26,413 bases of DNA, from IMG/VR virus record IMGVR_UViG_2778261064_000014; one strand, given 5' to 3'. How positions within the stretch are numbered: position 1 is the first letter of the stretch; each line of letters begins with the position of its first letter. A program made the position numbers. This document shows, one piece after another, positions 1 to 6,000 of this stretch. This stretch comes from a virus (taxonomy: Duplodnaviria; Heunggongvirae; Uroviricota; Caudoviricetes).

Positions 1-3000
1 CTTGACCCCAGCCTTACAGAAGTGATACTGGCCCCTGTTTTTGCGTAACGTGCATCGAAGTTTCCGTAGTCTGACGGTGTCACCCGCCCTGAAACATTCA
101 CTGCCCGGTTACTTTGTAACTCGCCATTCTGAAAACGGAATACGTGCTGACCATTGGCATAAACATCCAGCAGGCCGTCACCATTCTGTTTAAAGCCAGT
201 ATCACTGTCACCAATTGCAATTGAGTTACCACCCAGCGCATTCTGAACACCGATACCCAGCGCACCATTCACCTGAGAGCCACCGCCAACAGACACTTTG
301 TGCGACATGGATATCTCCCCCGTCCGCAAGTCAATACTGAACGGGCGCAATGAGCCAATATCACCATTTTCACCCTGACCTTCACTGGTAGGAATAAGGT
401 GCAGGCACTCTTCCGAACGGCGAAAAATCAGACCAAAGGCTTCGTTGAAAATCCTCAGCGCATTAACACCACGGATTTTCAGTTCCCCGCTCATGGTGTC
501 ACCATCACGCTGAACGGCATTTTTTGCCTTATCCACCGTGGGTTTTAATCCGAGGTTTTCAACAGACTCATCCTTGTCTTCCACATCCGAAAGATTATTT
601 TTTCGTTGCAGATAGCGTCTGTCTCCGATTTCCTGAGTAATAATGGCTCTGTCCGGATCAACCTCCAGCACCACGCTTTGCGCGTGCGTCAGTCCAAGAA
701 CCAGCGTCAGAATAACTTCCTTAATAACGGAATCCGTCTGGTCTGGTAAAAAGGTGTCCGGATAACGTCCGTACGCGATAAGCGTACCTCTGTCGCTGAT
801 CATCCCCAGTTCACGAAGGGTTTTACCGGGGTATGATTTACAGTCAATCACAATATCCCCGCTGATGAAGCCCTCCTCCACCGCACCGTCGGAAAAGGGT
901 TCCTGCCCGAATTCGCCGTACAATGATGTCATTGCTGCCATTTCATCCGGCGTGGATGGCAATGCCTGCCCGCCCCCGTCACCAAGCAGAACATGCCGGA
1001 CGGTCACGGTTTGCCCGTTCTGATATGCTGCTTCAATTTCTGCTGCGCCGGACGTTGTCAGAATCAGTCCATTCATACTCCTGCCTCACTCTGCCCTTCA
1101 GTGGGCACTGTCTTTGTTATCACACCGGTACTTCTGATTTTTTCTGTCGCCATCACATAGCCGTAACCAAATCCCCGCCCTGTGCTGTTCCCGTAGACGT
1201 GAATACTGAACCAGCTGCGCAGATTTTTGGCACGGAGTACCGCATGCTTCAGATCCTGATGATCATTCATCAGTACCGGTAAATCCTTCTGCTCCACGTT
1301 CAGACGAAAGGTATACGGCTCCCCGGGTGGGGTCTGCTCATACCACTCAACAATCTGCGACCGGAAGGGACTGTCAGCCAGCGATGCCATCAGCGCCGCT
1401 TTAGTCCCTCTGTGGCGGTGGATGTAAGCAGCACGTTTTATCGCAGACCGTTTTTCCGCCTCCGTCCAGTGTTCATTCCAGGTGTCCACCGCCATTTCCC
1501 AGGCCAGCCATGGCAGCAATTCAGCAGGACATAAATCGGGATTTTTCACATAGCGGATCAGGCAGACCGCTATATCTGACAGCATATCTCCGGCGACACA
1601 GTCCACCACCCGCTCCGCCCGGCTGGCACTGACCGGCAGTATGCTCCTGATATCGTCATTCATCAGTTGTCTCCACCTTATTCAGCGTTACCTTACGGCA
1701 CCACGGTGCCTGCCCCATCGCAGGAACGATATCACTGCCCGGAGAGGTCAGATTCACAGTAATCACCCCGGTCTGGTGAAGGGCACCATCCATGCCAGAA
1801 CGGGATGCCACCGAGCCAATCCGGTGGACGCTGTCAGTGTATGACTGCAGCGCCTTGCGGGCATTTGCCATAACCAGTTCACCATCCAGTCCGTAGGGAA
1901 TATGAATATCCGCCACCACATCGTAGGGAATAATTTCTGCCGTCCGGACACTGACAAAATCCGTCAGGGGACGGGTTTCATCATCACTGACTGATGCTGC
2001 CACCTTATCCAGCAGGGGTTGTGATGCGCTGCCATTTCCTGACCGGGATAAAACATAAAGAAAAACGCGGCCTTCCTGCGAGTGCGTTTCCGGCCCGTAA
2101 GCCTTCACATCCAGCACATCAGGATCAGCACTTTGTGCAAAATAGTGATACGCATTTTTCGCGCCGGCGGTGCTGAGCCGTGCCCACGACAACTGGATAC
2201 GTTCGCGAAAAGCGTCATCATCTTCATACACCGCCGGCGTGGGCGGAATGGTGCTGTCGTCTGCCGGGGTAATGACCAGCCGCTGAACCTGATAATTCGC
2301 ACCAACCTGATCCAGATCGCTCCCACCGGCACTGGCAAGCAGTACAGCACGGACAGCATCATTTATCTGCTGGCGCATCAGCGCCACCCGAAAAGCCAGC
2401 GCCTCTGCCCATTTATACGCGGGATCAGATTCCACCAGAGCCGAAAACAACGTATCCAGTTCCTGATACTTCGCCACTATCTGAGTGACCAGCATTGCGG
2501 TATCCGGCACTTCCACCGCATCCGGTACCGGTATCGCGGACAGATCAATAATTGCCTGAGACGTTGCCAATTTTTATCTCCTCGAGTCGAATCGTGTCCT
2601 GAGTTTCGTTGTTCACCCCGACAAGCGTCAGCCACGCGCTTCCTTCTCCTGTCCACGTCACTTCCACCCGCCGGAGAGTCAGACGGGGTTCCCAGCGTTC
2701 AAGGGCGGTTACCGTTTCACGGACAATTCTCACCCGCGTGAAATCATCCTGTGGGTTATCAAGCAGACTGAACAGTCTGCTGCCGTATTCCCTGAGCAGG
2801 ACCCGGCTGCCGACCGGCGTTGACAAAATATCGGTGACGGACTGGCGCAGATGTTCGTTACCGTGCAGATATCTGCCGGTGGCTGAATCAATACCAATCA
2901 TGTTGTTTATTCCGGAAAAAGAACTGAAAGGAGATTACATTTGCTGACCAGGCTGTCCGGTGCTGCCACCACTGTCGCCCCGGTGATTGTGGCCGTTATA

Positions 3001-6000
3001 AACAAGCCGGATTTGACTCATCGTTCCGTGATAATCAGAAACCTCACCACCGACCATCAGATCCGCCTTAACCACCACCTCAGCATTCATGGTTGCTTTA
3101 CCCTGTACGGTCAGGGTGTCTGTGATGTCTACCGGACCGTCAAGGGTCCCCCTGCCTGTAATTTTATAGCTGCCGCCTTCAGCCAGCGTGATGGACAGGG
3201 CATTAGCCTGACGGTCGTAACGGATTTCCGTTCCGATATCAAACAAAATAACATGTTCGTATTCACTGCCCTCAGGGACAGGAATGGCGTCAATATTGGC
3301 CCCCGGATACACCCGACCATTACGCAAATCGCCCGCCTCCGATATCACTGTAACGGCATCGCCGGGGGCCGGATAATTACTGACCTGCATGTAGCGCCCG
3401 GACTGTACCTGAATCCAGGGCAACGGCGGCGAAAGCACATCCCCGATATCCACCCGGACCATCACCGGGCTACCCGGGATCACCTCCTCCACCACACCAC
3501 GCCGGACCATATCCGCCACCCTGCGGCGTAACTCTGCCACTTCATCCGCCAGACTCATTGCCGGTGCCCTCTGTATTCCAGATAAGACGATAATCCTGCT
3601 CATGTCTCTTGCCGGTTTCCGGTACTTTCCCCAGCCAGACTTCCTGTAATGGCGCACCAGCCGGAGCATCGAACGGATCTTCCCCGACCGGAATATCCTG
3701 TTCAAAAGAAACGCGGAAAACGATGTAGTCATCCAGCAGGCGGTCGAAGGTATCCACTTCAGCATCAATAAAAATGGCCGGGTCAACGTTATCCAGCCCG
3801 AACGTGGCTCCCTCAATCCAGTCGGACAAATCCATCGCCAGACAACGGGCAAATATCTGCGGTTTTGGCACGTTCTCCGTCTTCCCGGCCCGGTCTGTCA
3901 CCACAAACAGATCGCATTTCAGCGTGACCCGTGTCTGCCCGTCGGCAAACTGGGCCTTGTCCCAGCCGGGCACATCAACAAACACGGCAGGCGTCACCAG
4001 TTGCGTCTCTTTTTCCGGGTACTCATCGGCATCTTCCACCCAGGGAATTTGTTTCAGACTGTCAATAACCGCCTGATGCCAGGCGCCCATCATTAATGGC
4101 TCCATCACTCCAGCCCCTTAAATACCCGGAATTTCAGTTCATGCTCAAAATTTTTCAGGATCAGTGCTTCCGCATCCGGAAAAACAAAATCCTCTATACG
4201 GTTCAGCATGGCTTCGTAAATATCAATTTCCGCTTCACGCACCCTTCGTCGTCCTGATACCTGACGGACCAGGACAGTCTTACGCCGTGAAATACGTCCG
4301 CGCCGGTTTTCAGACTCAAATTCATTAATGAAGGCCTCATCACCTGACCAGGTGGTGACCGGTATTGCCTCACCGGCAGGTTTAAAACGGATCTCCCTCG
4401 CCTTCCTGCTGCGTGAAGCTGGAGCAAAACGTCCCCGCACATCACGCAACTGATGGCGTTCGCCGCGTCGTCCACCACTGATGCGTCCGCGCAGATCGCG
4501 TACTTTGATGGCGTTCAGGCCGAACCATACCTTTGCCTCGTCAAACTCATCGCCGTTTCTACGAATGACAAAATCACGCAGCACACGCCTTCCGATCATT
4601 TTCTGACTGCGTGGGGCAACCTGTTTTTTAAACTCTGCCATGGCCTTCATCCGCAGTGCGGACGCGGCTCTTTTCAGCGCCACGCCCCAGGCTTTACGGA
4701 TCTGGCTTTTTGAACCACCCAGTTTAGCGATAATTTTCAGCACCTCATCTTCATCAATATCGACGACGAGGTTTCGTGCCAGCCGTCGCTGCCGGGCACT
4801 GCTTCGTTCATGCTCTCTGACTGCCATAACGTTTACTCGGTCGTTCCGGTGCAGCAGGTGTATTTCTCCCCGGCTCTCCCCGCGCGAGGATGATGGTAAT
4901 CACCCCCTGACCCGCAGTGCCTGACTCATCCCAGCCTGGATCGACTACCTGATAGGGTTCGCCGTGGATCATGACCCTGTCATATTTTTTCAGACCGGCG
5001 GCCCATACGCTCCGGGTAAATAATACAGGCGCAGTATCACGAATTTCGCCGCTGCCAGTGTTCATCCCGGTGTTATCTGCCGGAGCATCAAAAACGGCAC
5101 GGATTCTTCTTTCCGTGCCGCCCGGATATATGCTGATTTCCGTCCCCATCGTATCCAGGATGATGTCATCCGCATCACTCATGGCCTGATCGAACAGATT
5201 ATCGAACATCATCACTCCCGGATTTTTTCTGCCAGACCGTCCGCCAGCAACGCAGGAACTGCGGCTTCATTAACCAACACAACACTCGAGGCCCGGGCAA
5301 ACATCAACATTTTTCCCGTCACAGCATCACAGGCTGGCATATGCGCCGTTTTCAGCATACGCACCCGGGCGAGTCCCCGCTCAGAATGCATTCCGTCGCC
5401 GGATGCATCGTTGCCCACCTCTTCCTTCCCTGTTTCCTCCCCATCGAATCCGGCGGCCTCCTCTTCCCATTCCGCCAGGCGCTGCTCAAGATCGGCTTTT
5501 GAACCTGAAATATCTGCTTCACGCCCCAGAATCACTGCCAGTTCCTGCAAACGTTCAGTCATCTGCTCTTTTGTCATCACATCTCTCCCGTGCGCTAAAG
5601 AAAAAGGCGGGAATATCCCGCCCCGTCTTATTTCACCTGAACCACCACAAACGCATCCGGATCCGGCAACACCATCAACGGCGCAGACTGCGTCATGGTA
5701 TATTCACAACTTGGATCGCCAATAACCTCCCAGTGTTTCGGATAACGCGTTGCAGAGGTGATCCCTTCACTCAGAGCCTGATTATCCTGGATTGCGCCAT
5801 AGCAACGGACGCCCTCCGCCTGAGTGTTCCCCAGAATCAGTGTACCTTCCGGCAGATAACGCTGTTCATCCCCGTTTTCGTCAACATACGTTGTCTTCGC
5901 CACCACAATGGCCAGATCGCCGTAATGACCTTTAAAGGAAACCACGGAGCCCAGGTCTTTCAGTGCGGTTTCCAGCTCAGATTTGGAGCCGCGGCTGGTA

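Follow-up and report, generated by a model that had tools for sequence, protein, structure and literature searches.

A lambdoid Escherichia coli prophage in ompW likely encodes a myovirus with a lambda-type head and a P2/R-pyocin-type contractile tail

The viral sequence IMGVR_UViG_2778261064_000014 (26,413 nucleotides [nt]; Caudoviricetes), referred to here in its full length as the window, very likely carries the late (virion) region of a lambdoid Escherichia coli prophage integrated in ompW, and this region would encode a myovirus that combines a lambda-type head with a contractile tail of the P2/R-pyocin type. Head and tail are linked by a known three-protein neck comprising FII, a gpZ-like protein, and a collar/terminator. 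Homology points to lambda-type packaging and head functions, and homology together with the synteny seen in near-identical genomes points to a complete P2/R-pyocin-type tail. The design is real but ordinary: its layout has already been described for the Wolbachia phage WO and is present in the genomes of isolated phages. The prophage belongs with the lambda-head/collar-V-W-J-I myoviruses exemplified by phage WO and Valp1, and falls outside the Peduoviridae, the Symbioviridae, and the lambda siphoviruses.

Every long open reading frame (ORF) in positions 1 to 13000 of the window lies on the minus strand (Table 1). The packaging and head genes occur in the order Nu1-A-W-B-C/Nu3-D-E-FI-FII, and all of the head proteins score above the curated Pfam cutoffs. 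In tblastn searches, amino acid (aa) identities to lambda range from 48 to 66% for Nu1 through E and fall to 33% for FII, and FI, which has no lambda match by BLAST, was detected by profile only. The first-pass annotation, made from the sequence without database searches, had described the genes from Nu1 to FII as lambda-like in order and sequence, and this description holds. At the nucleotide level, the E gene has 77 to 78% identity to its counterparts in lambdoids, phage 21 and Gifsy-1 among them. Some 120 to 200 nt upstream of Nu1, a region aligns with bp 1 to 100 of lambda, including the stretches CGCTATTTATGAAAATTTTC and CCGTTCTTCTTC; the exact 12-mer of lambda cosN does not occur in the window, and matches with two mismatches are at chance level and are also found elsewhere in the window. 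The scaffold region of C/Nu3 contains a tandem repeat (positions 7246 to 7732; period of 138 nt, 3.5 copies, 81% matches) encoding about four copies of a unit of ~46 aa (..EAKGREQLAQxLAGQPGMTVEQAKAFLAA..).

Downstream of the head genes, V, W, J, I, and H retain the order that they have in P2, with tblastn identities of 27 to 41%. The most divergent is V, which is 27% identical to P2 V over its full length and 53 to 55% identical to its counterparts in phages yong2 and Chris1, and which is named "phage baseplate assembly protein V" in RefSeq. The P2-like character that the first-pass annotation assigned to these five genes is thus upheld by Pfam and PHROG matches, as is its statement that lambda-style tail genes are missing: no protein of the window matches lambda Z, U, V, G, T, H, M, L, K, I, or J by tblastn. 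When the virion proteins of the closely related prophage of E. coli strain 08-00022 (locus L001) are added to those of the window, the only match to the lambda tail region is that of a second fiber protein to stf orf-401, at 15% coverage. An internal part of H (positions 45 to 603, residues ~158 to 342; 52 to 603 in the megablast alignment) shares 92% of its nucleotide sequence with fiber genes of phiP27 and Rac-SA53, phages that are unrelated in other respects, a typical case of horizontal exchange within tail-fiber genes.

Between FII and V, the window has neither a sheath nor a tube gene. The first-pass annotation was therefore accurate in reporting their absence between head and baseplate, but this absence is no anomaly. 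The gene order in P2 is R, S, V, W, J, I, H, G, (fun(Z)), FI sheath, FII tube, E/E', T, U, and D, such that the arrangement is canonical for this type of tail, and the sheath and tube genes, which come after the fiber genes, are to be expected just outside the window. The prophage of strain 08-00022 and the IMG/VR contig L011 are both 98% identical in nucleotide sequence to positions 1 to 13.8 kb of the window, and both extend past its start, where they carry the full set of tail genes. In three relatives that are 95 to 98% identical in nucleotide sequence over the region shared with the window (08-00022; OkiPb01676, locus L009; and RM9088, locus L062), H is followed by G (fiber assembly), sheath, tube, a tail assembly chaperone, a protein in the tape-measure position, U, X, and D. 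Identities to P2 are 35% for the sheath, 22% for the tube, 33% for U, and 39% for D, and the 550-aa protein in the tape-measure position is 34 to 42% identical to the co-located proteins of vB_EcoM-705R4 (705R4), yong2, Chris1, and Valp1. Examining the sequence beyond the window start in near-identical prophages, as the first-pass annotation had proposed, thus points to a contractile rather than a siphovirus tail. On the 3' side of D, the same three relatives carry a second fiber gene and a DUF4376 gene (L001, 11025 to 13298 and 10423 to 11010; L009, 3026 to 5299), followed by a remnant of ompW that marks the end of the prophage. The second fiber protein (757 aa, "prophage tail fiber N-terminal domain") is 44% identical to lambda stf orf-401 at its N terminus and 58% identical to P2 H in another part. 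An IS66 element disrupts this gene in RM9088 and adjoins it in 08-00022.

The two ORFs at the junction, which the first-pass annotation had singled out as candidate adaptors, exist as it described them and encode neck and tail-end proteins; its statement that the head is joined directly to the baseplate gives way to a cassette of FII, a gpZ-like protein, and a collar lying between the two. The V-proximal ORF encodes 188 aa (ORF188), and its structure is most similar to the R2 pyocin collar PA0615 (14.6), followed by the tail terminator of phage Mu (13.2), T5 p142 (12.1), lambda gpU (11.8), the diffocin collar (11.0), and T4 gp15 (8.3). The similarity to PA0615 is also evident in sequence: the E value improves from 0.11 for the single sequence to 0.001 with close homologues, and a profile that also takes in the counterparts from WO, Valp1, and 705R4 gives a full-length match at 3.3e-15. 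ORF188 thus combines the terminator fold with sequence homology to a solved member of the family, and is a tail terminator/collar. It is 31% identical to the collar of phage WO. No similarity to P2 gpR or gpS was found by Pfam, NCBIfam, or hhalign, and with these proteins it shares only the general terminator fold.

The FII-proximal ORF encodes 240 aa (ORF240) and appears from profile comparisons to be a divergent member of the gpZ superfamily with extra central residues. Its family profile retrieved 184 cluster representatives among 1.8 billion proteins, most of them about 180 to 200 aa long, and these relatives match the profile in two stretches separated by a gap over the middle, indicating that ORF240 has about 40 additional central residues. 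The Pfam family Minor_tail_Z was detected in 39 of the 83 distant family members tested (best E value, 1e-12) and in the syntenic protein of WO (46.6 bits, against a cutoff of 23.9), and the Valp1 protein falls just short of this cutoff (19.9 bits). Neither junction ORF has a Pfam match of its own or is matched by an NCBIfam model. Searching ORF240 against PDB sequences with phmmer returned nothing, and the profiles A2 and A7 gave only spurious matches; comparison with P2 R and S yielded no Pfam, NCBIfam, or hhalign similarity.

Reading frames run without interruption from head to tail. FII overlaps ORF240 by 20 nt, ORF240 overlaps ORF188 by 4 nt, and ORF188 overlaps V by 17 nt, such that the run of genes from FII to V is unbroken, and no terminator-like hairpin was found at these gene junctions. 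Scans for promoters and terminators were at chance level overall. The overlaps without terminator-like hairpins, and the presence upstream in relatives of a lambdoid early region and a lysis cassette, suggest a single transcription unit, with one lambdoid late operon probably spanning all of the virion genes. Strong GC-rich hairpins followed by runs of T lie directly 3' of D (positions 6680 to 6704) and of E (5604 to 5624) on the minus strand, inside this operon, and may be attenuators or RNA-stabilizing structures.

This continuity bears on whether the region represents one phage or two adjacent elements, i.e., a head-only lambdoid remnant beside an R-type tailocin cluster whose tail is released headless. 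The best structural and sequence match of ORF188 is a pyocin collar, and the order collar-V-W-J-I-H-G-sheath-tube is also that of the R2 pyocin cluster, with which the whole tail block from collar to D is collinear. The R2 cluster (PA0615 to PA0628), however, lacks genes for a head, a portal, FII, and gpZ and packages no DNA, whereas here a complete head/packaging module runs unbroken into the tail genes, with no gap, promoter, or terminator between FII, ORF240, ORF188, and V. Moreover, FII and a gpZ-type completion protein make sense only for the joining of a head; a single integrase/attachment pair in ompW brackets the whole block, which has one lysis cassette and one putative cos site; and the relatives with the same layout are complete phages. 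We consider two separate elements very improbable and favor a single virion-encoding region.

Assembly of such a virion can be outlined by homology and, for the neck, by analogy. The head would be built and filled in the lambda way, from the putative cos site, the Nu1/A terminase, the portal B, the C/Nu3 protease-scaffold, the E capsid, and the D decoration protein, and the portal would be closed by W and FII. The tail would be specified by the run of genes from the collar through V, W, J, I, H, G, sheath, tube, E/E', tape measure, U, X, and D. ORF188 may form a hexameric ring that caps and stops the growth of tube and sheath and presents a docking face, ORF240 may complete the head-proximal end of the tail as a gpZ-type protein, and the finished tail end might then be bound by FII on the DNA-filled head. 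The analogies for these neck steps are lambda gpU, gpZ, and gpFII, the R2 pyocin collar, and the gpL-gpR-sheath "handshakes" of P2. According to a cryo-electron microscopy (cryo-EM) preprint on P2, the terminator ring ties the adaptor to the sheath through beta-strand handshakes, one of which is made by a terminal peptide of the adaptor with the terminator.

The same neck recurs in other phages. By tblastn, homologues of both junction ORFs lie side by side just upstream of V in yong2, Chris1, Valp1, and 705R4, with identities of 25 to 52%, and homologues of ORF188 occur additionally in many Wolbachia WO phages. In all 51 of the IMG/VR loci recovered with the ORF188 family, a Z-like gene is followed by the collar, and in every contig that is long enough, which applies to all but the divergent locus L061, the next genes are V, W, J, I, sheath, and tube, in an unchanged order; about 37 of these loci have a head of the lambda C/D/E type and 12 have a fusion-capsid head. 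Positions 1 to 6700 of the window are carried, at 80% or more, by 72 of 5,426 complete E. coli genomes, many Shiga toxin-producing (STEC) and enterotoxigenic (ETEC) strains among them, and the ORFs are mostly intact across these 72 genomes and the 51 viral contigs with the arrangement.

The complete layout is present in 705R4: lambdoid Q and lysis genes, Nu1 to FII, Z-like, collar, V, W, J, I, H, G, sheath, tube, E, T, U, X, and D. Valp1 shares the cassette of FII-like, gpZ-like, collar, and V genes, the P2-type contractile tail, the lambda C/D/E head, and the gene order; it differs in being a protelomerase (linear plasmid) phage and in carrying a PAAR gene. Electron microscopy shows Valp1 to be a myovirus, its head measuring 60 nm and its contractile tail 90 nm (PMC11054321). 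Both yong2 (Hafnia) and Chris1 (Citrobacter) have the cassette and the P2-type contractile tail, but they differ in their ClpP-capsid fusion head and in the position of the genes from sheath through D, which sit between V and W.

For phage WO (proposed Symbioviridae, Wovirus), the order FII-gpZ-collar-V-W-J-I has been published, and its collar was linked by HHpred to the collar of R-type bacteriocins and to Mu gp37 (PMC9203015), a link that our analysis of ORF188 reached independently. WOVitA1 encodes gpA, gpW, portal, gpC, gpD, gpE, FII (NCBIfam, 4e-14), "gpZ," an ORF188 homologue, V, PAAR, W, J, and I, and both this type of head and the order from FII to I are kept here. Identities are only 24 to 45%, however, and the PAAR gene between V and W of WO has no counterpart here, where V and W are only 33 nt apart. 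WO has a large serine recombinase, whereas the present prophage combines a lambdoid early region with an ompW-located phage integrase that bears an Arm DNA-binding domain. In contrast to WO, it also possesses Nu1 and FI, has no eukaryotic association module, and has tail genes that are contiguous with the baseplate genes. The Symbioviridae are characterized by a large serine recombinase, a PAAR gene, nucleotide homology to WO, and a symbiont host; the related OkiPb01676 prophage has, next to ompW, an excisionase and an integrase annotated as "phage integrase Arm DNA-binding domain," a PAAR gene is absent here, and the host is E. coli.

The resemblance to P2 lies in the series V-W-J-I-H-G followed by sheath, tube, E/E', T, U, and D, at identities of 22 to 51%, and in the presence of two small tail-completion genes directly before V. 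Unlike in P2, there are no head genes of the P2 type (Q, P, O, N, M, and L). The P2 cryo-EM preprint defines the Peduoviridae by orthologues of the P2 terminase subunits, portal gpQ, scaffold gpO, capsid gpN, and completion protein gpL; none of the head proteins has a tblastn match in P2, and they belong to lambda families instead. The neck also differs, consisting here of W, FII, the gpZ-like protein, and the PA0615-like collar, as opposed to gpL and gpR (plus gpS) in P2. In addition, X is located between U and D here but in the head/lysis operon in P2, and P2 has several annotated activator-dependent operons rather than what is here probably a single lambdoid late operon. In common with lambda, the region has the order from Nu1 to FII, preceded by a putative lambda-like cos region and followed by Z-family and terminator-fold genes (i.e., FII-Z-U). 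It departs from lambda in that the terminator is of the contractile-tail (pyocin collar/Mu) branch and not gpU-like in sequence, and in that a contractile tail follows the terminator instead of V, G, T, H, M, L, K, I, and J.

These comparisons decide against a recent one-off chimera, in which illegitimate recombination fused a lambda head region to a P2-like baseplate, possibly without producing a functional particle. Such an event would accord with a head that is closer to lambda (48 to 66% in aa; the E gene, 77 to 78% in nt to lambdoids) than the tail is to P2 (22 to 51%), with the different nearest relatives of head and tail, and with the head swapping that can be demonstrated within the group. 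But the synteny FII-gpZ-collar-V-W-J-I is kept in phages of E. coli, Vibrio, and Wolbachia at identities of 20 to 35%, and the combination is therefore old; FII-gpZ-collar-V is found also in yong2 and Chris1, in which the genes from sheath through D come before W, J, and I; phage genomes with the combination have been deposited as isolates, one of them imaged; and the arrangement, mostly with intact ORFs, is carried by 72 complete E. coli genomes and 51 viral contigs. Conservation largely refutes a one-off fusion, to which we attach hardly any probability. The virion module is a mosaic of a lambda-type head and a P2-type baseplate and fiber, as the first-pass annotation had claimed, but the same combination recurs in Valp1, yong2, Chris1, and 705R4, and "chimeric" is fair only in the sense of ordinary phage mosaicism, as shown by the shuffling of modules in the locus described next. 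A literature search pairing lambda-like heads with P2-like tails returned no papers.

The boundary between the two modules can be placed by comparing relatives. The genes from Nu1 through E are nearest to those of lambda and 705R4 (43 to 66%), and those from ORF240 through D are nearest to those of yong2 and Chris1 (35 to 63%; 42 to 52% for the junction ORFs and 41 to 63% for V through D), whose heads have a ClpP-capsid fusion and a cement protein and show only ~24% identity in terminase and portal. A head exchange is visible in the IMG/VR locus L013 (IMGVR_UViG_2917403263_000003). It is 92.6% identical in nucleotide sequence to positions 1137 to 4888 of the window, which span I through ORF240 plus the last 27 codons of FII, shares nothing with positions 4889 to 13065 (cosB and Nu1 through the body of FII), and resumes homology at 13066 to 15133; overall, the tail and flanks are 89 to 93% identical. 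In place of the missing segment, L013 carries a gpA terminase, a lambda-family portal, a ClpP-capsid fusion (Phage_capsid_4), a cement protein, and an FII of its own. One breakpoint falls at ~13065/13066, immediately past the cosN-like part, and the other at position 4888, with 27 codons of FII left before its stop. Judged from these alignments, the two phages are otherwise identical but have traded an 8.2-kb cassette, which reaches from cosB to the FII body, for a different head.

Because L013 shares the junction ORFs along with the tail while its head differs, these ORFs belong to the tail module, and they travel with it, since their nearest relatives in yong2 and Chris1 likewise share the tail and carry another head. 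It is accordingly most improbable that the junction ORFs are head-side connectors of the lambda-type head module rather than proteins of the tail end.

The position of the second breakpoint divides FII itself. Among three tail clades (loci L040 to L061), we compared the body of FII with its C-terminal 20 to 27 residues (positions 4808 to 4888). In the first clade, the body goes with the type of head (21 to 32%, window versus L013) and the C-terminal tail goes with the tail module (89%); the same trend is weak in clade 2 (30/41/63%), and in clade 3 the entire FII tracks the tail. One could speculate that the short basic C-terminal tail of FII (..TLARGEPGRxTPAAPxRPSKRYGSQRA) is a head-docking peptide to the collar/gpZ end, a portable "plug" inherited with the tail, although we regard this as unlikely. 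The trivial alternative is simple linkage, in which the 3' end of FII, which overlaps the start of ORF240, hitchhikes with it.

Several points weigh against the reading of this region as one that encodes a lambda-headed contractile phage. The particle of this particular prophage has not been seen. The window stops inside H, such that the sheath and tube are supplied by the 95 to 98% identical relatives. Searches of complete E. coli genomes did not recover the exact source of the window, the best match to the whole window being 96.5% identical over 92% of the query, and a megablast search with positions 1 to 6700 found no deposited phage that is close at the DNA level, with matches only to the E gene and to fiber fragments. 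Some copies have decayed: in 08-00022 there are a terminase frameshift and an IS66 insertion, and in RM9088 the second fiber gene is disrupted by the insertion sequence. The gene for the large terminase subunit is frameshifted in 08-00022 (L001, 30485 to 32400), and this copy is probably defective as a result; the copy in the window is intact (652 aa). The remaining points concern ORF240. It has no direct Pfam match, and its structure model is of low confidence (predicted local distance difference test [pLDDT], 61), making the fold search uninformative. Of the structural checks proposed for the two junction ORFs, that on ORF188 returned the pyocin collar as best match, but the ORF240 model is too poor for fold comparison, and the assignment of ORF240 to the gpZ superfamily is consequently transitive. 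Finally, no match emerged when the junction families were compared by hhalign with lambda Z, P2 S, and P2 R as single sequences, which is no argument against a shared fold, because templates of this kind are insensitive.

Table 1. Features of the window, in order along the minus strand, with the matches on which the assignments are based
Feature	Position	Strand	Evidence
Second B subunit of subtilase-cytotoxin-type locus	17129-17542	-	Only 45% identical to first B subunit
SubA homologue	16046-17077	-	PDB 2iy9, E=5.6e-157
SubB homologue	15615-16049	-	E=2e-49
Putative cos region, lambda-like (cosN-like then cosB-like)	13040-13125	-	Upstream of Nu1; aligns with lambda bp 1-100
Nu1, terminase small subunit	12374-12922	-	Pfam Phage_Nu1 1.5e-83; 52% aa to lambda Nu1
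A, terminase large subunit	10486-12444	-	Pfam GpA_ATPase and GpA_nuclease; 66% aa to lambda A
W, head-tail adaptor on portal	10273-10482	-	Pfam gpW 5.7e-23; 48% to lambda W
B, lambda-family portal	8705-10276	-	Pfam Phage_portal_2 2.7e-96; 62% to lambda B
C/Nu3, S49 prohead protease and scaffold region	7099-8715	-	Pfam Peptidase_S49 1.9e-33; 54% to lambda C
D, head decoration	6725-7060	-	Pfam HDPD (gpD) 2.2e-23; 52% to lambda D
E, major capsid	5628-6656	-	Pfam Phage_cap_E 1.8e-66; 59% aa to lambda E
FI, DNA packaging chaperone	5212-5580	-	Pfam Packaging_FI 2e-13; phrog_92 2.6e-33
FII, head closure/head-tail joining	4808-5215	-	Pfam Phage_attach 2.3e-12; phrog_82 Hc1 2.5e-29; 33% to lambda FII
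ORF240, probable divergent lambda gpZ-family tail-completion protein (240 aa)	4105-4827	-	phrog_27 "tail completion or Neck1" 4.5e-26
ORF188, tail terminator/collar, R2 pyocin collar PA0615 homologue (188 aa)	3542-4108	-	Structural and sequence match
V, baseplate spike/assembly	2935-3558	-	phrog_9992 4.8e-23; weak Pfam Phage_base_V
W, gp25-like baseplate wedge/sheath initiator	2545-2901	-	Pfam GPW_gp25 3.2e-15; 39% to P2 W
J, baseplate wedge	1656-2570	-	Pfam Baseplate_J 2e-22; 41% to P2 J
I, baseplate wedge/fiber attachment	1073-1663	-	Pfam Tail_P2_I 1.6e-35; 36% to P2 I
H, tail-collar fiber, first 358 residues	3-1076, off window start	-	Pfam Phage_tail_fib N-terminal 1.4e-14

Outside the virion genes, the window contains cargo of low GC content (38 to 41%) at positions 15615 to 17542 on the minus strand, between tRNA genes and lysis genes, which is the position of stx in Stx phages. 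The cargo is an AB5 locus of the subtilase-cytotoxin type, with the gene order B-A-B. The same prophage backbone occurs in 08-00022 without the locus, indicating that the SubAB-type cargo is variable. The paper on RM9088 mentions only "SubB homologues" and places an Stx1a prophage in ompW of that strain (PMC10562709); that prophage was considered as the present element and rejected, in that the RM9088 copy has no stx but a SubAB-like locus. The toxin locus is directly preceded, as is common in Stx phages, by three tRNA genes (positions 17939 to 18185; Arg-tct, Arg-tcg, and a tRNA with a CAT anticodon that RefSeq assigns to Ile in relatives). An AraC-family regulator resembling YdeO/GadX (positions 18212 to 18925; NCBIfam, 6e-30, below the equivalog cutoff) adjoins the tRNA genes and the toxin locus.

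The significance of these results is mostly corrective: a lambda-type head followed by P2-type baseplate genes, without sheath or tube genes between them, is how the genomes of many temperate myoviruses are normally laid out, in a widespread group to which phage WO, Valp1, yong2, Chris1, and vB_EcoM-705R4 belong. Two "hypothetical proteins" of this prophage family in RefSeq can now be named, one as a probable tail completion protein of the gpZ family and the other as a PA0615-type tail terminator/collar. The window and L013 provide nucleotide-level breakpoints for the exchange of a whole head module on one tail, which could help phage engineering. If the portable plug were real, the unrelated lambda C/D/E and ClpP-capsid fusion heads would be swappable onto the same contractile tail. 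And with a SubAB-type locus on the same backbone, the type of virion matters for thinking about the spread of toxin genes.

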